The position numbers were made by a program, and so were the translations under genes. From positions 44,841 to 108,840 of the IMG/VR virus record IMGVR_UViG_3300044617_000796: a stretch of 64,000 bases of DNA. One strand, written 5' to 3'. The first letter of the stretch is position 1; every line of letters begins with the position of its first letter. This document shows, in pieces, positions 10,193-59,291 of this stretch. Origin of the DNA: a virus. The notes under the pieces are model-generated. The model saw nothing but the letters and a program-made list of their open reading frames with translations. It ran no database searches and had not been told where the DNA came from.

Positions 10193-10264
10193 GCCCCTTT
10201 AGCTCAGCGGTAGAGCACTTCACTTGTAATGAAGCGGTCCTCGGTTCAATTCCGAGAGGGGGCT
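10193..10264 (+). tRNA. tRNA-Thr(UGU)
   Basis: Cloverleaf GCCCCTT/GGGGGC, anticodon arm CTTCA-CTTGTAA-TGAAG, T loop TTCAATT; no encoded CCA. Confidence 0.95.
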
Positions 10265-10286
10265 CTGATATAAGGAGTAATATAAT

Positions 10287-11025: not shown

Positions 11026-11101
11026 TGGCGAGTAGCTCAGTTGGCAGAGCAAGGGACTGTTAATCCCTGGGTCGTAGGTTCAAACCCTACCTCGCCAGCC
11101 A
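11026..11101 (+). tRNA. tRNA-Asn(GUU)
   Basis: TGGCGAG/CTCGCCA acceptor stem, AGGGA-CTGTTAA-TCCCT anticodon arm, TTCAAAC, encoded CCA. Confidence 0.95.
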
Positions 11102-11983: not shown

Positions 11984-12016
11984 CTAAAGGATTGTTTACT
12001 TGTGGCTATTGCGAGT

Positions 12017-12262
12017 TTATAATTCTATAAAAATGCATTCACCAGGGCACTCTTCGGCGGCTTCAATAACATCTTCCAACCGATCATCGGGAAAAGATGC
12101 TAAACCAGCTGCGCCTTCGGGGTTTCCTCGGAGCTTGGAATAAACCTTCCCGCTCTCTTGGACATAGGCTAACCCATCCTCCAGCATGGTGAAAACATCG
12201 GGTGCTATCTCGGCGCACAGTCCATCTCCAGTACATAGGTCTTGGTCAATCCAAACTCTCAT
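12017..12262 (-). CDS. Single-cluster ferredoxin (3Fe-4S/4Fe-4S), actinobacterial type
   Basis: IDQDLCTGDGLC...APDVF...AAEECPGECI (CxxDxxC...CP). Confidence 0.92.
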   Translation of the reverse strand: MRVWIDQDLCTGDGLCAEIAPDVFTMLEDGLAYVQESGKVYSKLRGNPEGAAGLASFPDDRLEDVIEAAEECPGECIFIEL

Positions 12263-12660
12263 TTGCTCTTGCGCTTTGCAAGTAGGGCATCAAAGTCTTT
12301 CACCTTGGTCTCCCCCATGTATCCCCAAGCGTAGCCCTCGTCAATGAGCTGCTCGTTCAAGGACTTGGCTGCGCCATCAAGGTATACCCAACCTAAAATG
12401 CGCCCGTACTTTTCGGTGCTATCGGGAAGCTCTGTTTTTATAATAACTGTTTTGGCTGAATCTATCGCACTCTTCACTTTATTTTTAACCTCAAGCCCCA
12501 GAGCCTTCTCTCGCAGGTCTTTGGTGCGTGACTCAGGGGTGTCTATTCCAGCCAGTCGGACTCGTTGTGCGAAAGAGATATTAAAACCCAGATCAATGTC
12601 CACATCAATCGTGTCACCGTCTACTACCTTTGTTACTTTTTTGATATTATATTCGTACAT
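12259..12660 (-). CDS. Thermonuclease (SNase-like)
   Basis: VVDGDTID, RVRLAGIDTPES, KYGRILG, LNEQLIDEGYA. Confidence 0.92.
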   Translation of the reverse strand: MYEYNIKKVTKVVDGDTIDVDIDLGFNISFAQRVRLAGIDTPESRTKDLREKALGLEVKNKVKSAIDSAKTVIIKTELPDSTEKYGRILGWVYLDGAAKSLNEQLIDEGYAWGYMGETKVKDFDALLAKRKSK

Positions 12661-12691
12661 TTATCAAGTATAGCAGGTATACTATAAGACT

Positions 12692-12865
12692 ATGGCTATC
12701 TATCATTACCGCTGCCACAACCAGCACACCTACGAAGAGTCTAGAAAGATGTCTGAAGAACCTAGAGTAGTTACATGTCCTGAGTGCGACCTACCTCTGA
12801 AACAAATATTCTCCCCGCCAGGAATCAACTTCAAAGGTCATGGCTTCTACCGTAACTCTCGGTAA
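12692..12865 (+). CDS. FmdB-family zinc-ribbon protein
   Basis: MAIYHYRCHNQH...CPECD...IFSPPGINFKGHGFYRN (57 aa, manual translation). Confidence 0.88.
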   Translation: MAIYHYRCHNQHTYEESRKMSEEPRVVTCPECDLPLKQIFSPPGINFKGHGFYRNSR

Positions 12866-12919
12866 TACACCCAATCATTATTACTACCCCGCAAATTAGT
12901 ATCTGTGTATACTGATAAA

Positions 12920-13009
12920 GGCAGCGAAAGCTAACCTTAGGACCGTTATAGGTGCAGATGCCTCTGGGCTCAACCCCCAGGGGCATGTGCATGTGTAGCG
13001 GTCTTTTTT
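12920..13009 (+). ncRNA. Candidate structured small RNA (~90 nt)
   Basis: Own TG-TATACT at 12908-12913, 5' AGC-GAAA-GCT hairpin, long stem GACCGTTATA/TGTAGCGGTC enclosing ATGCCTCTGGG/CCCAGGGGCAT, ends in T6. Confidence 0.65.
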
Positions 13010-13207
13010 ATTCTCCCCCAAACTTTTATACTCCTATACCCGCCCTGAACCTTCCTATCCCAAATTTGAGTATACATTTTATGAATGTTACTTTTACTTT
13101 TAGACGCACTGGAAAATCCTGTGTTCACTAGGGTCAATCGCTGGAGTGCGATTCTGCTTAAGCAAAGAATTGTACACCAGCGATTGGGAAAGCGGATACA
13201 AAGGAAA

Positions 13208-13239
13208 TTGAATACACATTTTCTCTCAAATGCTATTGT
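13208..13239 (+). promoter_or_regulatory. Cassette 1 promoter
   Basis: TTGAAT-N20-TATTGT with TGc extension. Confidence 0.75.
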
Positions 13240-13280
13240 AATTTGTGTCAAGGCAATCCCGCCGAGACAGAGAGGACAGT

Positions 13281-13514
13281 ATGATTACTGAACACTGGAC
13301 ACGACAGAATGAGTTGCGTGAGCGTGAGCGCATGGCACTACGCTTGCTCAACCATATCCTGTCAATGACAATACCCGTTGAGGCTAATGACGATTGGTCT
13401 TGCGTCAAGTTCAACCTCAAATTAGAGGGCGGTTCCATTACCGTAATGACAGGCGCACAATATCACCCGTCATGCAATATGTACGAGGTCATGGAATACG
13501 AGGTACAGCGATGA
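13281..13514 (+). CDS. Cassette 1 gene a, hypothetical
   Basis: GAGG SD after 5' stem-loop; MITEHWTRQ... Confidence 0.75.
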   Translation: MITEHWTRQNELRERERMALRLLNHILSMTIPVEANDDWSCVKFNLKLEGGSITVMTGAQYHPSCNMYEVMEYEVQR

Positions 13515-13603
13515 AGTACCTACCACGCATTGGCTTCGGCATTGTGATTGGTTGCTTGGTTCTGATGATTGTTCAGACCATCGCCCACGCCTTTACAATG
13601 TGA
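13511..13603 (+). CDS. Cassette 1 gene b, 30-aa single-TM peptide
   Basis: GAGGT SD, ATGA overlap, MKYLPRIGFGIVIGCLVLMIVQTIAHAFTM*. Confidence 0.65.
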   Translation: MKYLPRIGFGIVIGCLVLMIVQTIAHAFTM

Positions 13604-13607
13604 GCCC

Positions 13608-13652
13608 GAACCCCGAATGCCTCCCCCCTGAGGCATTCGGGGTTCTTTTTTT
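13608..13652 (+). terminator. Intrinsic terminator T1
   Basis: GAACCCCGAATGCCTC/GAGGCATTCGGGGTTC plus T-run. Confidence 0.9.
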
Positions 13653-13791
13653 GTCCCTGCACCCGCCCTATCGCATGTCTGTTCCAATGAACTTTAATAC
13701 ACTCACAACACACATGCGATCGGGTGGTGGGCAAGGGCGCTTCAGCATTGCAATTGCACACCAACTGTTGAGGATCAGAGCATGAACGAGA

Positions 13792-13823
13792 TTGAATACA
13801 CATTTTTCCTCACATGGTATGTT
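13792..13823 (+). promoter_or_regulatory. Cassette 2 promoter
   Basis: TTGAAT-N20-TATGTT, TGg extension. Confidence 0.8.
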
Positions 13824-13868
13824 TATTGTTATCGGAACACACCTAACCCCGATGAAAGGACAAAGACC

Positions 13869-14177
13869 ATGAGTGAAAGAATATGTTCATATCATAGTTG
13901 GAACTACTTGTATGAAGTGCACCCAAGCGGTAAGTACTTCATTGCATACCAGTTCAGTTACGACAATAAAGAGAGACAAGTTATTGCCGTAGTTGACCGC
14001 TATGTAACAGATGACAAGTGGGCTGCTATGCGTTGGTGCAGGGCACAGTATGACCTTGAGGTTGAACCTTGGGACAGAAGTGCTGAAGCCAACGAGATTA
14101 GGGAGAGTGCAAGGGTTGCCTTGCATGAACTCCACGAGTTGGAGAAAGAACAGGACAGGTATCGTATCTACGGGTGA
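13869..14177 (+). CDS. Cassette 2 gene, hypothetical
   Basis: AAGGA SD; MSERICSYH... Confidence 0.75.
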   Translation: MSERICSYHSWNYLYEVHPSGKYFIAYQFSYDNKERQVIAVVDRYVTDDKWAAMRWCRAQYDLEVEPWDRSAEANEIRESARVALHELHELEKEQDRYRIYG

Positions 14178-14182
14178 TACCA

Positions 14183-14210
14183 TCTCCCCTCGCCTTTGGG
14201 CGGGGGGAGA
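14183..14210 (+). terminator. GC-rich hairpin T2 (no U-tract)
   Basis: TCTCCCCTCGCC-TTTG-GGCGGGGGGAGA; nearly identical to T6. Confidence 0.65.
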
Positions 14211-14342
14211 ACCCCGACCTAATTGCGAACGATCATACATGTTTTTTAATACACATTCTCACAAGAAAAAATCATTGGTGTGCGGAGCTGCTTCAGCGAA
14301 AGATTTGTGCACCAACGAATAGGGCACATGCTCTCAACAGCG

Positions 14343-14374
14343 TTTAATACACATTTTTTACAAGATGGTATGTT
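14343..14374 (+). promoter_or_regulatory. Cassette 3 promoter
   Basis: TTTAAT-N20-TATGTT, TGg extension. Confidence 0.8.
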
Positions 14375-14420
14375 TATTTATGTCAAGGACACTCCCTAAC
14401 ACCTTGACAGGGAGATAGCA

Positions 14421-14612
14421 ATGAAAAAGCGGACAGAAGTTAGTCCAAACCACCCAGTCGCAAGACTGACACTGGAACAACAATTCATGGTTGTTGCAGG
14501 CGCACTCAATCGTGCTACCCAGCAGGGCAACACGAAAGGCATTCAGGGCTTGGCAATGATGCTCAAGGGTTACGAGGAAGCAATAGCCAAGAAGAACCAA
14601 GAAGCCAAGTAA
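14421..14612 (+). CDS. Cassette 3 gene, hypothetical
   Basis: GGAGATAGCA-ATG. Confidence 0.8.
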   Translation: MKKRTEVSPNHPVARLTLEQQFMVVAGALNRATQQGNTKGIQGLAMMLKGYEEAIAKKNQEAK

Positions 14613-14629
14613 TACCCTAATCCCCCCAG

Positions 14630-14665
14630 TCCCCTCAAGCCGAAAGGCTTGGGGGGATTTTTTTT
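14630..14665 (+). terminator. Intrinsic terminator T3
   Basis: TCCCCTCAAGCC-GAAA-GGCTTGGGGGGA plus T8. Confidence 0.9.
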
Positions 14666-14803
14666 GCCTAAACACCAGCGTTCTCACATGACCATACCCT
14701 TTATCTTTAATACACATTCTCATCACACAAGAACGGTGGTGTGCAAAGCTGCTTCAGCAAAAGATTTGTACGCCAACGAATGAGGTACACACTATCAACT
14801 CTC

Positions 14804-14835
14804 TTTAATACACATTTTCCATCAGATGGTATGGT
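14804..14835 (+). promoter_or_regulatory. Cassette 4 promoter
   Basis: TTTAAT-N20-TATGGT, TGg extension. Confidence 0.75.
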
Positions 14836-14879
14836 TATCTTGTTCCTAGCAATCCCGCTAGGACAGATTGGAGATAGCA

Positions 14880-15101
14880 ATGAAAATTATGGTTACTATC
14901 CAAACCCCGACTTGCCCCGAATGCGGGCATTGGGGCGAGATCCAAATGACCCGTGATGAATGGGAGTTTGGCAAGACGGCTAGTTGGCAGGGCGAACTCA
15001 TTCAGAATTGTTTCCCTACCCTTACCCCAGCCCAGCGTGAGCAACTCATGAATGGCTACCATTCAGAGTGTTGGGATAAGATGTTTGCGAGTGCAGAATG
15101 A
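14880..15101 (+). CDS. Cassette 4 gene a, small Zn-binding protein
   Basis: GGAGATAGCA-ATG; CPEC...IQNCFPTLTPAQREQLMNGYHSECWDKMF. Confidence 0.8.
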   Translation: MKIMVTIQTPTCPECGHWGEIQMTRDEWEFGKTASWQGELIQNCFPTLTPAQREQLMNGYHSECWDKMFASAE

Positions 15102-15337
15102 GCCCGCAATTACTGGAGACTATCCTCCACGCCGTAGCAGACCTACGGATACCCAAGACTGACGGGGTAATCATTGAGGCTCTCAAGATACCCCGTGAGA
15201 TATTCCAGCAAGACGGTGTAGAGTGCCGTAAATACAAGCGGAGTGTTGAGCATCAGATACGCACTCACCCCGCTATCAAGCCAGTACTTGTCTGGTGGAC
15301 AGTACACGGTGACTGCTACTTGACAAGAGCAGACTGA
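15098..15337 (+). CDS. Cassette 4 gene b, hypothetical
   Basis: ATGA overlap with gene a; stop just before terminator. Confidence 0.7.
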   Translation: MSPQLLETILHAVADLRIPKTDGVIIEALKIPREIFQQDGVECRKYKRSVEHQIRTHPAIKPVLVWWTVHGDCYLTRAD

Positions 15338-15342
15338 AACTT

Positions 15343-15376
15343 CCCCCTCGTGCCTTCGGGTGCGAGGGGGTTTTTT
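15343..15376 (+). terminator. Intrinsic terminator T4
   Basis: CCCCTCGTGCC-TTCG-GGTGCGAGGGG plus T6. Confidence 0.9.
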
Positions 15377-15516
15377 CATGTCCAACACCAGTCTTTCCGT
15401 ATGCCATTGCCCATTGTCTTGAATACACATTCTCATACGAAAAAAAGAATGGTGTACGGAGCTGCTTCAGCAAAAGCTTTGTGCACCAGCCGAAGGGGTA
15501 CACACTCTCAACTACA

Positions 15517-15548
15517 TTGAATACACATTTTTCATGATATGTTATGTT
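15517..15548 (+). promoter_or_regulatory. Cassette 5 promoter
   Basis: TTGAAT-N20-TATGTT, TGt extension. Confidence 0.8.
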
Positions 15549-15595
15549 TATTCATGTCAGCGATTATCCTAACCCCGCTGGCAAGGAGAAAGCAA

Positions 15596-15853
15596 ATGAA
15601 ACGAGTACCTAAAGGCTCTGTCAAGGTAATGAAGCGTGGGCGCAGTAAGTTCCATGACCCGTACCTTGCCAAGTGCGTCAAGGCAGTAAGCAACACTTAT
15701 GATATTGTTGCAACACAAAGGGCAGTACCGAACACGATAGCCAACAAAAACCGTGTTCGTTCCCGCATTATGAGCCTTGCAGGAAACAAAAAACTTGGCG
15801 TGAATTGGTACGCTGAGGGCAAACTTGTAGTGCCAGTAATCACCAAGAAATAA
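15596..15853 (+). CDS. Cassette 5 gene, basic RGR-motif protein (distant paralogue of cassette 7/8 genes)
   Basis: AAGGAGA SD; KRGRSKFHDPYL...NKNRVRSRI...GVNWYAEGKLVV. Confidence 0.8.
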   Translation: MKRVPKGSVKVMKRGRSKFHDPYLAKCVKAVSNTYDIVATQRAVPNTIANKNRVRSRIMSLAGNKKLGVNWYAEGKLVVPVITKK

Positions 15854-15869
15854 GGTCGCTTCTCCAGCG

Positions 15870-15903
15870 AACCCCCAAGCCTACGGGCTTGGGGGTTTTT
15901 TTT
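15870..15903 (+). terminator. Intrinsic terminator T5
   Basis: AACCCCCAAGCC-TACG-GGCTTGGGGGTT plus T-run. Confidence 0.9.
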
Positions 15904-16044
15904 GTGCCTGAACGCCAGCGCCATAGCAAAGTCATAACCAGTTGGTTGAGCACATGTTCTCTCTCTTGATATGTCGTTGGCGTGCGGATTGGGTTTACCA
16001 AACAATTTGAACGACAACGAAAAGGGTACAGGGTCTCAACGGCA

Positions 16045-16076
16045 TTGAATACACATTTTTGATGACATGGTATGTT
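16045..16076 (+). promoter_or_regulatory. Cassette 6 promoter
   Basis: TTGAAT-N20-TATGTT, TGg extension. Confidence 0.8.
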
Positions 16077-16122
16077 TATAGATGTCAAGGACATTCCATA
16101 CCCCCTTGACAAGGAGATAGCA

Positions 16123-16389
16123 ATGACACACCTACCCGAACACCCAAGAGCACTCACGATTGCTCATGAGGATGTTGTCAAAGTTGCCTTGCAACTGAAA
16201 GACAACCTCATCACCAGAGGCGAGATGAATGCTCAGATGCTCAGCATTGTGGTTGGCATGAAAGTTGCCCTGCGCCAAGAGTTCATTGGCGAAGTGCAGG
16301 ACAAGTTGAGCGACATTGAGCAACTGTTCACAGATGTTCAAGGCTCAATTGAGGAAATGGATTACCTCACACTCTTCCAACCAGAGTGA
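16123..16389 (+). CDS. Cassette 6 gene, helical/coiled-coil hypothetical
   Basis: AAGGAGATAGCA-ATG; MTHLPEHP... Confidence 0.8.
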   Translation: MTHLPEHPRALTIAHEDVVKVALQLKDNLITRGEMNAQMLSIVVGMKVALRQEFIGEVQDKLSDIEQLFTDVQGSIEEMDYLTLFQPE

Positions 16390-16404
16390 TTGTTCCTTCC
16401 CCCG

Positions 16405-16439
16405 CTCCCCTCGCCTTCGGGCGGGGGGAGTTTTTTTTT
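16405..16439 (+). terminator. Intrinsic terminator T6
   Basis: CTCCCCTCGCC-TTCG-GGCGGGGGGAG plus T9. Confidence 0.9.
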
Positions 16440-16578
16440 GCCTGAACTCCAACTTTTCCCATATGCCATGTCTCTTTGCTTGAGTACACATTCTCACACT
16501 GGAAAAAAAGCTGGTGGGCGGATCTGCTTTAGCAAAAGATTTGCACTCCAGCCAATGAGGAAGCGAAACGAAACCAGG

Positions 16579-16610
16579 TTGAATACATATTTTTAGCGTA
16601 ATGCTATATT
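16579..16610 (+). promoter_or_regulatory. Cassette 7 promoter
   Basis: TTGAAT-N20-TATATT, TGc extension. Confidence 0.8.
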
Positions 16611-16676
16611 TATCTCATGCCAAAGCGATTAGGCTGAGGCAACACACTGCGGTGTGTATAACCAAGGAGATAAGCA

Positions 16677-16988
16677 ATGCCAAAGGTAAACCTAAGCGAC
16701 CTCAAAGGTCAGTTATCATCTCGTGGGCGAGCCCCGTATGACAACCCTGAACTTGAGGCTGAAATCAAGAGCCTTGACCCAGCCATTGATGGTGATGCAA
16801 CCATCTATGAGGGCAGTCAAGGAGACCCATCAAGCGAGGACTACACGAACCACAAAGCAATGTGGCGTGGGCGTGCCGAGACAATTGCCGACAAGAACGG
16901 CATTGCCATCAGCGTGCAGTGGCTCACCACTGGTCAGATGGTTATCTCGCTTGCCAAGCCTGCAAAGGGCAAGAGCAAGCGCAAGTAA
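16677..16988 (+). CDS. Cassette 7 gene, RGR-motif protein (possible DNA binding)
   Basis: AAGGAGA SD; clear paralogue of 17309..17614. Confidence 0.85.
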   Translation: MPKVNLSDLKGQLSSRGRAPYDNPELEAEIKSLDPAIDGDATIYEGSQGDPSSEDYTNHKAMWRGRAETIADKNGIAISVQWLTTGQMVISLAKPAKGKSKRK

Positions 16989-17010
16989 CCGCATCTCCTG
17001 CGGTTAGTAT

Positions 17011-17045
17011 AGAACCCCCGTACTTCGGTACGGGGGTTCTTTTTT
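17011..17045 (+). terminator. Intrinsic terminator T7
   Basis: AGAACCCCCGTAC-TTCG-GTACGGGGGTTCT plus T-run. Confidence 0.92.
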
Positions 17046-17210
17046 GCTGGCGTTCATCCCGTGCTGAAGCACAATGAACGCCAGCTTTGCGACACATGCC
17101 ATTCTCTCATTTTTAGTACAGATTCTCAATCCCATTCCCTGGCGGGCGTGCGATTGCGCTTTAGCGATGCAATTGCACACCCGCTGTTGGGGTACCAATA
17201 CGAAACCGAA

Positions 17211-17242
17211 TTGAATACATATTTTCACCATAATGGTATGTT
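17211..17242 (+). promoter_or_regulatory. Cassette 8 promoter
   Basis: TTGAAT-N20-TATGTT, TGg extension. Confidence 0.8.
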
Positions 17243-17308
17243 TATTTATGTCAAAGGCAATACCGCCGAGACACACTCATACCGAGTGTTGAACATGGGA
17301 GAATACCT

Positions 17309-17614
17309 ATGGCAAAGATAAACCTCAATGACTTGCAAGGCATGCTGTCCAAGCGTGGGCGTGAGGCGTTCCACGATGAGACACTACAAGCCGAGATTGT
17401 TAGCCTTGACCCAAAGGTTGAGGGTGACGCATTCATTTGGGATGACGCACAGGGTAATCCAAACGATGAGGATTACACAAACCACAAGGCTAAGTATCGT
17501 GGTCGTGTTGAAACCATTGCAGAGCGCAACAATGTCGCTGTGTCCGTTCAATGGACTACAGACGGGCGTTGCGTAGTCTCACTCGCCAAGCCTGCCAAAG
17601 GCAAGCGCAAGTAA
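17309..17614 (+). CDS. Cassette 8 gene, RGR-motif protein (paralogue of cassette 7 gene)
   Basis: GGAGA SD; MAKINLNDLQG..KRGR..EDYTNHKA..RGR..SVQW..SLAKPAKGK. Confidence 0.85.
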   Translation: MAKINLNDLQGMLSKRGREAFHDETLQAEIVSLDPKVEGDAFIWDDAQGNPNDEDYTNHKAKYRGRVETIAERNNVAVSVQWTTDGRCVVSLAKPAKGKRK

Positions 17615-17635
17615 CCCTTACCCCGTAAGGCGTGT

Positions 17636-17670
17636 AGAAGCCCCGTACTTCGGTACGGGGCTTCTTTTTT
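17636..17670 (+). terminator. Intrinsic terminator T8
   Basis: AGAAGCCCCGTAC-TTCG-GTACGGGGCTTCT plus T-run. Confidence 0.92.
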
Positions 17671-18490
17671 GCTGGTGTTCATCCCGTGCTAAAGCACAAT
17701 GAACACCAGTTATCAGAAGGCTTATCGTTACCATTTTTAATATACATATTCCTAATCATAAAGATGGCGGGTGTCCCAAAAAGAAATGCATTTGTTTTTG
17801 TACACCCGCAAAATATAATTAATTTATCGCTTAACTTTATTACATATTTCTAATCATAACTATAAGATTACATATGGCTTTCAAAATGTATTCCAAAATC
17901 TCATAGATAAATACTTATCTAAGGGAGGAAGGTAAAAGTTTACGCACATTTTATTTTTGTTAATCAAATGGGCTGGGAAAGACTTAGCCTGTCTCTCTAC
18001 CTATCGCCTCAGATTACATCAGTGTAATCAAACACTTATACTATTCCTAAATCTATGCATCAACCCGTCATTATTCTGGGTCATCAATCGGTTATAGTAT
18101 TACGCCCCTATATAGTCTAAAAGAGGGGGAATATGTTTGTATTATTCTTATAGATACCCAGTAATAGGGTATTTACATAGGGGAATCTAAATAGATCTCA
18201 ATATCTGAGCTTTTTTGCCCAATTGTTGACCATTTTGGTAGTATTTCTATTAAAAATATTATTAATTAGTGAAAAAAAGACAAAAAAAACACCCAAAAAT
18301 AAGCTTATTTTAAGCCTATAAATGGGTGTTTTCCTTATGTACTATGTGATATATCAGCTATATATTATTGATACATCTATGATATGCCTATGATATGAAC
18401 TCCTGCTATATAGAATATATCTTATACATATTGGAGCGTGTCTCTCTCATACGCTAATGGTTTTTGACACTTATTTTCTATCAATTCAAA

Positions 18491-22045: not shown

Positions 22046-22671
22046 GATATTACTGCTTCCTGTTCAATGTAATATGGTTCGTCATTTATATTAGCTAAAC
22101 CAATTTCTCCATTCATAATTCTTGTAAGCACATCTACTGCTGTAAGATAATCAATGGTACTAAAGTCAATAGTAAGTTCACTTTCCCACCAATCAATTCC
22201 TTCTTCATTAGCAGCATCCATTGAGCCATAATCTTCTAATTCCAAATCGTACCTTTCAGGCTCATTTTCCATTAGCCATTTCCAGATACAATTGCTATCG
22301 CCATAGTAAAGATTTTTACCTTCTTGATATGTTAAGCCCAAGAAATTATTTGATGTTTGTTCAAATGCATTCATTTGATCAGAATGGTTGTCTACTGATA
22401 ACCATTTTGGTGCTTTCCATTCACTAGCAATTGCTGTAGCAAATCCTGCAATACAACCCATTGATGTACAATTGAAAATGTCTGTACCTTCATCAATACG
22501 ATTGACTCTTGATGCTGGATACTGGCTTGCTAATCTATCATCTTCAAATACATATTGTTCAAATCTTTCATCATTAAGTTTGCCAATGAAAGCGGACATA
22601 TTAAACTTCTTTTGTCCGTCAATCTTAATAGCATCAATTACTCTTTGCATGTTTTCTTTATTCATTTTCAA
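22042..22671 (-). CDS. Hypothetical protein
   Basis: FNMSAF...CTSMGCIAGFA. Confidence 0.8.
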   Translation of the reverse strand: MKMNKENMQRVIDAIKIDGQKKFNMSAFIGKLNDERFEQYVFEDDRLASQYPASRVNRIDEGTDIFNCTSMGCIAGFATAIASEWKAPKWLSVDNHSDQMNAFEQTSNNFLGLTYQEGKNLYYGDSNCIWKWLMENEPERYDLELEDYGSMDAANEEGIDWWESELTIDFSTIDYLTAVDVLTRIMNGEIGLANINDEPYYIEQEAVIS

Positions 22672-26495: not shown

Positions 26496-26598
26496 AATTA
26501 AGAATGATCATGAACTCCGATTTATTTGAATGTGTGTACCCAAGAAATTGAGTATACATTTTCACTAAACCTAAGAGTTTATAATGACAATATCTTAG

Positions 26599-26672
26599 CG
26601 TATCCGATAGGACTTGAACCTACAACCTAAACATTAGAAGTGTTTTGCTCTATCCAATTGAGCTACGGATAC
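26599..26672 (-). tRNA. tRNA-Arg(UCU)
   Basis: GTATCCG/CGGATAC, AAACA-CTTCTAA-TGTTT anticodon arm, GTTCAAG T loop. Confidence 0.93.
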
Positions 26673-32603: not shown

Positions 32604-32924
32604 TTATTTTGATTTTTTTATTTGTGTTATTGTTTTGTTTATAACAATTGGGACTATTTCAGAATAGTCAATTACATTATAAACTTTCTTAATTGAATTT
32701 CTTTCACGAGAAGAAAAGCCTCCCCAAACACCATGCTCTATGTTTTCATTTAAAGCATAAGATAAGCATTCGGTTTGAACTTTGCAATCACCACAAAATT
32801 CTCTTGCTTTACTAATTTTCTTTGTGCTGTACCTTCCATTTTCAGTTTCAAAAAAGAAAATATCTAATGGATGTTTTTTGCATTTAGCAAAATCTCTCCA
32901 CTCTTCCCGTCTAGTTTTAGCCAT
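32604..32924 (-). CDS. whiB: WhiB-family Fe-S transcription regulator
   Basis: WRDFAKC..DIFF..AREFCGDCKVQTECLSYAL..HGVWGGFSSRER. Confidence 0.92.
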   Translation of the reverse strand: MAKTRREEWRDFAKCKKHPLDIFFFETENGRYSTKKISKAREFCGDCKVQTECLSYALNENIEHGVWGGFSSRERNSIKKVYNVIDYSEIVPIVINKTITQIKKSK

Positions 32925-58410: not shown

Positions 58411-58639
58411 TTTCTTTTTTAGCTTTCTTCCAAGTTGCTAATAGTATATCAAATTCGGAGTAACCACCGTTAACGCCATATATAACATCTTCACCCCATG
58501 CATTGATCAGACATTCTTTTCTGACCTCGCATGATTGGCAAATGTTTTTTGCATATTGAACATCCTCATGTTTATATGAGAACCAATAAATGCTGTTCTT
58601 ATCTTCAGCGCAAAGGGCTTTTGTTCTCCAATTTGCCAA
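58349..58639 (-). CDS. WhiB-like protein (divergent)
   Basis: WRTKALC...AKNICQSCEVRKECL...YGVNGG. Confidence 0.85.
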   Translation of the reverse strand: MANWRTKALCAEDKNSIYWFSYKHEDVQYAKNICQSCEVRKECLINAWGEDVIYGVNGGYSEFDILLATWKKAKKENDSNWNRTDRTLQKLLRKAE

Positions 58640-58850: not shown

Positions 58851-59291
58851 TTACCTTTTTCCTATCTTTATTTTTTCGGATATTCTAATAACTTTTGCTT
58901 GCACATTTATATTCTTGTCTGCAATAGGTCTTCCTGGCGTTCTGCCATTGAAAAATGATACCATATCGTAAACATCTTGTCTCTCATAGTAGCGCCAGTT
59001 TTTATAACTTTCACAAGTTTCACTGAATTTCTTTCCACTAGGGATAAGACCTCTTTTTTCGTACTTTCTGATTGTATCAGATCGTTTTTCAACTATCTTA
59101 GCAATCTCTCCAATTGTATAAATTCTATGCATAATCAATTCTGCATTTTCGTATGGCAAAATCAATTCTTGCTTAGTCGTTAAATCAGTTACATAGACTT
59201 TATTTAAGTTCCTTGTTATTTTTTTTACTTTTACGATGGTATCAGCGTATTTGTAAAATTTATTTAGGATTATTTTCGTCTGCAAACTCAT
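58851..59291 (-). CDS. MerR-type HTH DNA-binding protein
   Basis: YTIGEIAKIVEKRSDTIRKYEKRGLIP...WRYY. Confidence 0.85.
   Translation of the reverse strand: MSLQTKIILNKFYKYADTIVKVKKITRNLNKVYVTDLTTKQELILPYENAELIMHRIYTIGEIAKIVEKRSDTIRKYEKRGLIPSGKKFSETCESYKNWRYYERQDVYDMVSFFNGRTPGRPIADKNINVQAKVIRISEKIKIGKR

Follow-up and report, generated by a model that had tools for sequence, protein, structure and literature searches.

The question raised by this locus is what holds two short motifs of a viral genome, a hairpin arm and an AATACAYATT box, at a fixed distance from each other, and why the pair recurs 98–99 bp upstream in many of the same intergenic spacers. In the initial annotation, each spacer was thought to hold two bipartite sites forming a phased nucleoprotein complex that might serve as activator, as recombination synapse, or in packaging/injection. 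After our analysis of the window (the whole 64,000-nt stretch of DNA) and of homologous arrays, the bipartite unit with its fixed spacer and the non-promoter distal copy were retained, but not the phased pair, the synapse, or the packaging signal. On balance, we consider it probable that the locus is an array of cassettes similar to the PeSLs of T4-like phages, in which a promoter module with a fixed hairpin-to-box gap is accompanied by a decaying distal duplicate.

Boxes, arm motifs and array layout

A scan of the window resulted in exactly 12 plus-strand matches to AATACAYATT between 13211 and 17223 and a single further match, at 22547, in the other 60 kb. The fuller proximal box TTGAATACAYATTTT matched nine times in the whole 108.8-kb genome with at most one mismatch, always on the plus strand and within the array, while the arm motif TGNRCRCCARC was observed nine times versus 0.42 expected. 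Thus, the initial observation was confirmed and its counts were correct. The reported 43 bp from arm start to box hold at proximal and distal copies in the window and correspond to 29 nt (26 nt plus TTK) from the arm end to AATACA, a gap shared by all proximal boxes and by three of the distal ones (14709, 16483, and 17115). With regard to the arm positions, 13171, 14306, 15909, and 17075 match the motif, while 14666, 15379, 16440, and 17171 are present but one or two bases off. Box-to-box distances of 98, 98, 98, 99, and 99 bp are exact for 14248/14346, 14709/14807, 15422/15520, 16483/16582, and 17115/17214, but two other distal boxes, 13696 (AATACACTCA) and 15949 (AGCACATGTT), carry three to four mismatches and are thus degenerate; a ninth pair (17741/17839, 98 bp apart) had been missed. 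The sequence between the boxes is indeed divergent, its positions carrying 0–0.3 bit with the exception of a GG at -24/-23.

The array (Table 1) displays a GC content of 46–48%, compared with 31–39% in its flanks, and its head promoter P0 is kept in the related arrays examined. Each module consists of a stem-loop of about 45 nt, the 26-nt spacer, an asymmetric 13-nt box (TTKAATACAYATT), a -10 element, a 5'UTR hairpin, and a ribosome binding site, with hairpin and Shine-Dalgarno sequence located downstream of the proximal -10. The -10 (TAnnnT, often TGn-extended) follows 13–14 nt past the box; it was detected at +23 or +24 from the box in nearly every proximal unit of seven arrays (9/9 in the window), with variable inner bases, and extended -10s of the TGGTAnnnT type are present at further promoter-like sites of the genome. 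Judged from sequence, the proximal unit is a predicted promoter of the extended -10 type whose box spans roughly positions -38 to -26, and such a putative promoter module of about 115 bp heads every cassette. None of the cassette ORFs could be assigned a function. The module occurs in a family of uncultured siphoviruses whose WhiB genes suggest that the host is an actinobacterium, and the array is assumed to be active early.

Table 1. Coordinates of array features in the window
Feature	Position	Strand	Description
Whole array	13066–17900	+	head promoter P0, nine regulatory modules (M1–M9), eight gene cassettes
P0 promoter	13066–13094	+	array head; canonical, TTGAGT-17-TACTTT
M1 proximal unit	13136–13239	+	hairpin 13136–13185, 26-nt spacer, box TTGAATACACATT (AATACA at 13211), -10 TATTGT
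ORF A	13281–13514	+	
ORF B	13511–13603	+	
Terminator, cassette 1	13608–13645	+	intrinsic
M2 distal unit	13655–13705	+	arm-like CACCCGCC, 26-nt spacer, degenerate box AATACACTCA at 13696; no -10
M2 proximal unit	13719–13823	+	hairpin 13719–13769, box 13795, extended -10 TGGTATGTT
ORF C	13869–14177	+	
Hairpin, cassette 2	near 14187–14212		no U-tract
M3 distal unit	14207–14257	+	arm-like GAACCCCGAC right after GC hairpin lacking U-tract; box 14248; no -10
M3 proximal unit	14270–14374	+	hairpin 14270–14320, box 14346, extended -10
ORF D	14421–14612	+	
Terminator	14628–14659		
M4 distal unit	14668–14718	+	arm AAACACCAGC, box 14709; no -10
M4 proximal unit	14731–14835	+	hairpin 14731–14781, box 14807, extended -10
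ORF E	14880–15101	+	
ORF F	15098–15337	+	
Terminator	15343–15370		
M5 distal unit	15381–15431	+	arm CCAACACCAGT, box 15422; no -10
M5 proximal unit	15444–15548	+	hairpin 15444–15494, box 15520, extended -10
ORF G-like	15596–15853	+	
Terminator	15869–15898		
M6 distal unit	15908–15958	+	arm TGAACGCCAGC, degenerate box AGCACATGTT at 15949
M6 proximal unit	15972–16076	+	hairpin 15972–16022, box 16048, extended -10
ORF H	16123–16389	+	
Terminator	16404–16431		
M7 distal unit	16442–16492	+	arm TGAACTCCAAC, box AGTACACATT at 16483; no -10
M7 proximal unit	16506–16610	+	hairpin 16506–16556, box 16582, extended -10
ORF G, first copy	16677–16988	+	
Terminator	17011–17040		
M8 distal unit	17042–17124	+	full hairpin 17042–17089, 26-nt spacer, box AGTACAGATT at 17115
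M8 proximal unit	17138–17242	+	hairpin 17138–17188, box 17214, extended -10
ORF G, second copy	17309–17614	+	
Terminator	17636–17665		
M9 distal unit	17667–17750	+	inverted hairpin copy 17667–17714, spacer, box AATATACATATT near 17741
M9 terminal proximal unit	17763–17866	+	hairpin 17763–17813, box ATTACATATT at 17839, -10 TATAAG; no ORF after

The arm-to-box gap and the hairpin

The arm-to-box gap was 26 nt plus TTK in every one of the distinct proximal units (122/122), which were drawn from some 26 contigs of viral or metagenome origin, and 51 of the 53 proximal units of seven arrays had the corresponding 29 nt, the 26-nt spacer being fixed in length and almost unconstrained in sequence. When gaps of 18–34 nt were permitted, 50 of 128 metagenome matches lay at exactly 26 nt with 1–9 at each other gap, as did 18 of 33 matches in IMG/VR, this being the sole peak in both datasets, while a control scan of 185,579 prokaryote genomes was flat (3/64 at 26). 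Since neighboring intervals of the same modules drift (distal-to-proximal 85–120 nt, 5'UTR 31–119 nt), the gap is under selection and not merely inherited, which supports the proposed bipartite site with a fixed, sequence-independent spacer.

The arm itself turned out to be the 3' half of a covarying stem-loop of about 45 nt. Its stem comprises 14 pairs (83.9% paired), with double changes at nine of them, and its covariation score of 0.344, compared with 0.163 in shuffles, was reached by none of 500 shuffles and collapsed in all slid registers. On the sense strand, G·T cells exceeded A·C cells by 64:12 (175:56 in 125 units), which points to a fold on that strand, and the covariance model R1 scored nine copies at 35–55 bits on the plus strand versus 13–23 bits on the minus strand. 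We therefore regard the hairpin as real, with the sense strand as the one predicted to fold. Its stacked helix of about 20 bp includes an asymmetric bulge on the 3' side as well as G·A and mismatch positions, all of them conserved; a search against Rfam gave no match.

Function of the proximal and distal units

No TAnnnT was found at +22 to +25 of any distal box, in agreement with the earlier view that the distal copy does not act as a promoter. Most distal units have kept the 3' arm and the 29-nt gap, the hairpin being gone, though the gap is looser than in proximal units (33 of 38 canonical), and the full distal hairpin of M8 scores as an inverted (minus-strand) copy of the module hairpin. 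While most spacers of the window genome do contain the unit twice, 75 of 125 modules in relatives lack a recognizable distal box, and in the L161 lineage it has decayed to TTGAGTRTGCTCT. The distal unit is a paralogous arm and box copy that lost its -10 and is optional, decaying, and placed at a lineage-specific distance.

For the proximal unit, we favor a reading in which the gap would be measured by a box-bound factor acting together with the sense-strand hairpin; that this factor is trans-acting and the hairpin serves pausing or insulation is a possible, still tentative extension. The box, where an activator or repressor may act, would be occupied by a trans-acting protein or by sigma region 4 with a partner. 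Polymerases entering from upstream, either from P0 or by read-through out of the preceding cassette, would give rise to the hairpin in their RNA or in the sense strand that they displace. Owing to the constant 29 nt, the hairpin would have just emerged from the exit channel when the polymerase front edge reaches the occupied box, so that incoming transcription would be paused or stopped and each cassette promoter insulated. This geometry is derived from established polymerase footprints, in which the polymerase extends at its front edge about 13–14 bp beyond the active site and a pause hairpin stops some 11–13 nt short of the RNA 3' end. Against this reading, little RNA should reach the hairpin because most modules follow strong U-tract terminators, and two full distal hairpins are inverted and would be of no use to an RNA reader that depends on orientation. 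Furthermore, our searches gave no match to sigma region 4, no transcription factor near the array (Pfam and PHROG, about 50 ORFs), and no candidate box-binding protein.

Some of these points would be met by a composite operator in duplex DNA, which we judge unlikely overall: a phage or host protein would bind the arm (TTGNACNCC, centered near -71) and the box (near -31) as one rigid site and act as upstream activator or repressor of the cassette promoters, the complementarity of the hairpin serving another purpose. Since most distal units keep the 3' arm and its gap in the absence of a pairing partner, recognition of duplex DNA fits them better than an RNA hairpin; the inverted hairpins also present the same arm at the same distance, the invariant T, G, C, and C of the right arm exceed pairing needs, and the arms lie about 31–32 bp apart from center to center, i.e., three helical turns. 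However, such an operator would lead one to expect neither the matched double changes at 9/14 stem positions nor the 3–5-fold sense-strand excess of G·T over A·C, its arm-to-box core of about 40 bp amounts to a non-integral 3.8 turns, and no DNA-binding protein candidate was found.

The strand-specific fold with its bulge, mismatch positions, and stacked helix would also suit an element of RNA processing or stability, such as a site of the RNase III type or a stem that protects 3' ends, acting in RNA from read-through or in polycistronic RNA, comparable to the intergenic RNase III sites in the T7 early region. The first hairpin would be transcribed from P0, and read-through is expected after about one third of the upstream genes because these end in hairpins without a U-tract. 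We nevertheless hold this explanation to be improbable: the box distance would be functionless, leaving the gap fixed in 122/122 units unexplained while neighboring intervals drift, the Rfam search was negative, and inverted copies are no substrates on sense RNA.

The phased complex of the initial annotation is less probable still, to the point of being very doubtful. Its best argument is the period, which is tight in the window genome (98–99 bp) and its closest relative (97–99 bp, one 93), and near-constant at its own 92–94 in L161. Across homologous arrays, however, box-to-box distances of 85, 92, 93, 95–102, 104, 114, and 120 nt cover every rotational phase, variable spacing being what the annotation itself had named as incompatible with two copies in helical register, and most modules have either no distal box or a decayed one. 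With the distal copy being optional, decaying, and at a lineage-specific distance, the 98–99-bp period is better attributed to inheritance and concerted evolution than to helical phasing. A recombination synapse finds no enzyme in this genome, rated complete, which encodes no tyrosine integrase, serine recombinase (resolvase), or Y1 transposase, and mosaic breakpoints fall at no fixed site. Nor is there support for a packaging or injection signal: arm and box units are confined to the array of about 5 kb, with none elsewhere in the genome, the terminase neighborhood included, and a distance of about 23 kb separates them from the terminase gene, each being placed in front of a gene with -10, 5'UTR, and ribosome binding site.

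Cassette exchange and comparable systems

Gene order is not constant between arrays, and identities are mosaic: gene A of the window is 100% identical to its counterpart in G001 and 52% to that in G003, while gene D shows 100% to G003 and 44% to G001. Blocks of 97–100% DNA identity begin just past the -10, and exchange boundaries are scattered over the 5'UTR, the hairpin apex, the region after the terminator, and the gene interior. By this pattern, whole cassettes are swapped between related phages, the promoter core staying lineage-specific. Capture and shuffling of cassettes at a recombination site of the single-strand-hairpin kind, integron-like or otherwise, would account for such reordering, for the attC-like, strand-specific imperfect hairpin of each cassette in a one-directional array, and for the G-family cassettes, whose flanking hairpins are in opposite orientation. 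This reading is extremely unlikely given that none of the three recombinase families is encoded, a promoter and a terminator belong to each cassette, the hairpin precedes the promoter, and exchange takes place at varying points.

Among actinophages, comparable systems are start-associated sequences and the repeats of Cluster DJ Gordonia phages, the latter also occurring as multiple intergenic, presumably regulatory copies over several kb (PMC9753669); these repeats, however, are described only as upstream of ATG starts, and no sequence similarity emerged from a blastn search of 50,697 phage records. The operators/stoperators of Cluster A mycobacteriophages resemble the boxes as asymmetric 13-bp sites with many intergenic copies in a single orientation relative to transcription, some overlapping a promoter -35 and others promoterless (PMC9283540, PMC6550527). 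In contrast, stoperators are genome-wide and have no fixed partner hairpin, whereas the boxes lie within the 5-kb array of a phage with neither integrase nor recognized repressor. A conserved box likewise replaces the -35 in T4 MotA middle promoters and in the PmSL cassettes of phage nt-1 (PMC4122927), and our box, a fixed 13–14 bp upstream of a good -10, matches the Mot box "at the appropriate distance"; the box sequence differs, no MotA or AsiA homolog surfaced in our general searches, and the upstream hairpin has no counterpart there.

The array with its terminators resembles the promoter-early stem-loops (PeSLs) of T4-like phages, which are composite terminator/promoter cassettes (PMC2839356, PMC4122927). 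Differences are the siphovirus with WhiB genes here versus a T4-like myovirus there, and three features not described for PeSLs in the available parts of these reports: the additional covarying hairpin fixed 29 nt from the -35 region, the invariant 13-nt box instead of a normal -35, and the dead arm and box duplicate that is often present. Both share repeated intergenic terminator and promoter cassettes around small ORFan genes in a plastic region and lineage-specific consensus sequences, and in both, genes are gained, lost, replaced, and reordered among related phages with boundaries in or beside the cassettes.

Organization of the cassette array and its phage

The cassette array runs in one direction throughout and comprises nine regulatory modules (M1–M9) and ten ORFs encoding 30–103 aa, with a GC content of 46–48% (13,000–17,900) against 31–39% in its surroundings; within 12000–18000, it lies 8–15 GC points above the DNA on either side. 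Each module starts with an intrinsic terminator, followed by a short "arm" TGAACNCCAGC, 26 nt, a distal box TTtAATACACATTCTCA, and about 13 nt, leading to a stem-loop of ~45 nt, the 3' half of which forms the second "arm" TTGYACACCAGC. After a further 26 nt, there is the proximal box TTGAATACACATT, then 13 nt, TGnTATGTT, a 5'UTR hairpin, GGAGA, and a small ORF. All 12 exact boxes are located on the + strand, as are the nine matches of the fuller proximal box motif in the genome, which all fall within the array, and a covariance model of the module hairpin (R1) revealed no copy in the genome outside of it. The terminators were recognized as seven GC-rich stems with U-tracts, and 170–200 nt past each of them lies a TGn-bearing TAnnnT −10, with a 5'UTR and an SD sequence behind it. 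In related arrays, about a third of the cassettes end in a hairpin without a U-tract, so that transcription is likely to continue into the following module at these sites. Among the array ORFs, only ORF E displayed Pfam/PHROG matches, both of them weak, namely a sub-cut-off DUF match and a PHROG without assigned function.

The complete-rated IMG/VR virus genome encodes a capsid protease, a major head protein, a DnaE-like polymerase, a ribonucleotide reductase, a DnaB-like helicase, and a large terminase, by which Streptomyces phages are the nearest isolates (42% identity). The 4375-aa tape measure protein implies a siphovirus tail of exceptional length. It also carries two WhiB genes and a MerR-type HTH gene which, in a genome with a GC content of only 31–45%, suggests a low-GC actinobacterial host. 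Since WhiB proteins are, to our knowledge, confined to Actinobacteria and their phages, an actinobacterium is the probable host. The array was absent from 185,579 prokaryote genomes in pattern scans, so that no host can be named from them.

Comparison of the array with 50,697 phage records via blastn resulted in no match, and a scan of IMG/VR with the 15-mer box yielded single chance matches only. Relatives were recovered exclusively with two-box and arm-gap-box patterns, namely the IMG/VR arrays G001, G002, G003, L148/L150, and L161, as well as 35 further loci in metagenomes.

Features of the array and its genome; positions refer to the window (bases 44841–108840 of the 108,840-bp record) unless marked otherwise
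Feature	Position	Strand	Remarks
Tape measure gene (locus L138)	genome 4812–17939	-	single 4375-aa ORF outside the window; tape measure is its sole PHROG match
tRNA genes Thr-TGT, Asn-GTT, Arg-TCT (n=3)	10193–10265, 11026–11101, 26598–26672		
FmdB-type zinc ribbon	12692–12865		57 aa, just upstream of the array head; PHROGs annotation: transcriptional regulator
Array-head promoter P0	13066–13094	+	TTGAGT-17-TACTTT, 142 nt upstream of first box
Exact boxes (n=12)	13211–17223	+	
Blocks with 97–100% identity to G001 (IMGVR_UViG_3300044547_000816)	13246–13735, 13833–14216, 14857–15118		flanks otherwise closer to G003
Gene with GC-rich terminal hairpin without U-tract	13869–14177 (hairpin 14187–14216)		arm-like GAACCCCGAC directly after
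G-family cassettes	16506–17089, 17138–17714		oppositely oriented module hairpins at both ends, like terminal inverted repeats
Last module	17839–18100		good promoter, box then TATAAG; no convincing ORF downstream
ATTACA-N4-TGTAAT	18013–18028		small hairpin after the last module, kept in five arrays
WhiB-family genes (n=2), MerR-type HTH gene (n=1)	32694–32900, 58454–58630, 58965–59120	-	

Arm-to-box spacing, hairpin, and putative promoter

The initial annotation had reported a rigid arm-to-box distance recurring every 98–99 bp and had explained it by two phased copies of a bipartite site per spacer. Its coordinates and distances all proved correct, apart from degenerate distal boxes at 13696 and 15949 and several arms deviating from the motif by 1–2 bases; a rigid bipartite unit indeed exists, but a phased pair of such units does not. 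In seven arrays, the end of the arm was separated from AATACA by 29 nt (26-nt spacer plus TTK) in 51 of 53 proximal units, i.e., hairpin, spacer, box, and −10, and overall this distance was found in all 122 distinct proximal units. When gaps of 18–34 nt were allowed in scans, a gap of 26 alone rose above background (50 of 128 matches in metagenomes, 18 of 33 in IMG/VR), and the control scan against the 185,579 prokaryote genomes was flat over all gaps. The spacer itself carries almost no sequence information, while the 5'UTR of the same modules drifts between 31 and 119 nt in length. As other intervals drift and the spacer sequence is nearly free, the arm-to-box length is under selection. Mutual information gave only stem pairs and lineage-linked columns, and hence no pairing of spacer or box with the rest of the module.

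The lower stem of the hairpin consists of 14 pairs, which were paired in 83.9% of cases and revealed changes on both sides at nine pairs, e.g., one position with 26 U-A, 10 G-C, and zero mismatches. Its covariation score far exceeded those of shuffled alignments and of all slid registers. G.T cells outnumbered A.C cells 64:12 among 38 copies and 175:56 among 125 copies, and this one-sidedness of the wobble pairs indicates a fold on the sense strand, either as RNA or as displaced DNA. Conserved features comprise a G.A pair and a mismatch, together with the flanking invariant G-C, while the apex and the 3' bulge vary by lineage. Rfam yielded no family above threshold, the best scores of 19–27 bits (thresholds 39–54) lying mostly on terminators. 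A role of the hairpin as a − strand terminator was dismissed, as an A-run precedes it in M3, M5, and M7, but not in other modules or lineages.

Downstream of the box, TAnnnT with variable inner bases occurs at +23 or +24 in almost every unit, that is, 13 or 14 nt after the box end in nearly all of 125 units. A distance of 20–21 nt separates TTG from the −10, and AATACA takes the place of the hexamer at −35. Extended −10s of the TGGTAnnnT type were also detected at other promoter-like sites of the genome. Judged from these sequence features, the proximal unit is a predicted promoter. Assuming a start about 7 nt past the −10, the box would cover approximately −38 to −26 and the right arm −76 to −65, with the ~45-nt hairpin located 66–108 nt upstream of the inferred start. 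A canonical promoter such as P0 heads every array examined, and P0 would transcribe the first hairpin. Two other promoter types were considered: a MerR-type promoter with over-long spacer and dyad operator fits the 20–21 nt, but neither conservation in the second spacer half nor a dyad was found, and a sigma-54 −24/−12 element in the left arm would require a GG-to-GC spacing from which the modules, by eye, are off by one and among which it varies.

Distal units and exchange of cassettes

Across homologous arrays, the box-to-box distance ranged from 85 to 120 nt, and such variable spacing is what the initial annotation had named as refuting its phased two-site model. The period is roughly constant within each lineage, with 92–94 nt in L161, 98–99 nt in the window, and mostly 99–104 nt in G001/G002 (one 98, one 114). 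The earlier view that the upstream box is not a promoter was borne out, since none of the distal boxes has TAnnnT at the proximal position, which is present at nine of nine proximal boxes in the window. Distal arm, spacer motif (ACACA..CTCTC), and box align with the proximal unit, with a slightly looser spacing (33 of 38 canonical) and a more degenerate box, which is largely lost in L161 and unrecognizable in 75 of 125 modules. Distal units are thus paralogues of the proximal units in a state of decay. Periodicity within one genome, however striking, can therefore be a relic of duplication and not a functional phase. Other functions of the distal unit were rejected: on either strand, the box lacks TAnnnT in the right place for a promoter, and a −35/−10-like pair on the − strand is found at M8 only, hence not general; leader ORFs over the box have 6–39 codons (by eye) and no SD sequence; and for an attenuator-like alternative pairing, the distal arm and the left arm of the hairpin that follows revealed no consistent complementarity by eye within modules.

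After both G-family terminators, the "distal arm" turned out to be part of a complete hairpin scoring as an inverted copy, with 24.7 bits on the − strand versus 15–20 on the + strand. The number of G-family copies differs from 2 to 4 between arrays.

Cassette order and content differ in four arrays, with the ORF families arranged as A B C D E F G H G G in the window and K A C D H E F G in G001. Genes A, C, and E of the window are 97–100% identical to those of G001, and for gene D and the final G the identity to G003 is 100%; A and D share 44–52% identity with the respective other of these two lineages. The DNA blocks of 97–100% identity start just after the −10 and end at the hairpin apex, after the terminator, or inside a gene; apex, spacer, and −10 are lineage-specific. 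The three G001-like blocks in DNA otherwise closer to G003 point to recent cassette exchange between lineages. Integrase, resolvase, and Y1 transposase genes are all missing from the 108.8-kb genome, which favours homologous or illegitimate exchange over site-specific capture.

Related regulatory systems and possible modes of action

Gene shuffling in the variable regions of phages is presumably driven by repeated promoter/terminator cassettes, which are documented mainly in T4-like phages. The array was classified as a variant of such regulatory cassettes. It shares with PeSLs the combination of terminator stem-loop and sigma-70-type promoter within a single short intergenic element, the multiple copies that flank small genes without known function in a variable region, and between-phage differences bounded by cassettes. 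Unlike PeSLs, which belong to T4-like myoviruses and display a near-consensus −35/N17/−10, it is found in a siphovirus with AATACA at −35. An exchange pattern like that of the array is described for the PeSLs of T4-like phages (PMC2839356; PMC4122927). This cassette logic now extends to unrelated uncultured siphoviruses, probably of actinobacteria, with the added constraint of a covarying hairpin locked 26 + 3 nt from a box in 122 of 122 units.

Further systems showed partial likeness. MotA-type promoters likewise have a box near −30 at a fixed 11–13 bp from the −10 and no −35, but general Pfam and PHROG scans of ~50 ORFs gave no MotA/AsiA-like activator or co-activator. Cluster A operators/stoperators resemble the boxes as 13–14-bp asymmetric sites with many intergenic copies in one orientation; however, those are genome-wide sites with a cognate repressor in temperate phages, while here the sites are restricted to the 5-kb array of a phage with no integrase and no recognized repressor. 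In contrast to integrons, in which promoterless cassettes are joined at a fixed attC point, the cassettes have their own promoter and terminator with variable boundaries, and an IntI tyrosine recombinase is absent (no PF00589 match in the 108.8-kb genome, controls positive). An N4-type system would require a virion RNA polymerase of ~3500 aa and a 5–7-bp hairpin with a 3-nt loop at the start site, but the only giant ORF is the tape measure gene and the module hairpin is long and far upstream. The Y1 (HUH) transposase of REP/BIME + RAYT systems is missing (no PF01797 match).

The comparisons establish a module of hairpin, box, and −10 with locked lengths. As to its mode of action, a box-bound factor and the sense-strand hairpin may act together on polymerases entering from upstream, which is the reading we prefer but regard as possible rather than probable; the 29-nt distance would fit a hairpin emerging just before the leading edge of the polymerase reaches the box. 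The main rival, a composite operator in duplex DNA, accounts more readily for the inverted copies and for distal arms that lack a hairpin, but it leaves covariation and wobble bias unexplained. That hairpin and box are two halves of a new kind of transcriptional insulator or promoter element seems rather unlikely. In one version, a protein at the 13-nt box would halt an upstream polymerase with the sense-strand hairpin exactly 29 nt behind, just out of the exit channel, this roadblock taking over the part that a U-tract plays in intrinsic terminators; in the other version, a factor carried along by RNA polymerase would read hairpin and box together. If either version is true, a nucleic-acid structure is measured against a duplex DNA site by the footprint of the polymerase. 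A spacer fixed in length and free in sequence implies a measuring device, be it a protein or the polymerase itself, and offers a direct experimental handle.

Pfam and PHROG searches of the array ORFs and ~40 neighbours revealed no transcription factor near the array besides the FmdB-like zinc ribbon, and sigma region 4 had no match in the genome. The AlphaFold model of the G-family ("RGR") protein reached a pLDDT of 72, and since Foldseek gave no PDB match with E < 0.1, it was not identified as a nucleic-acid binder. Overall, Pfam/PHROG, sigma region 4, and Foldseek searches provided no candidate for a box-binding protein. At the far end of the array, the transcript of the last module could be a non-coding RNA converging on − strand genes.
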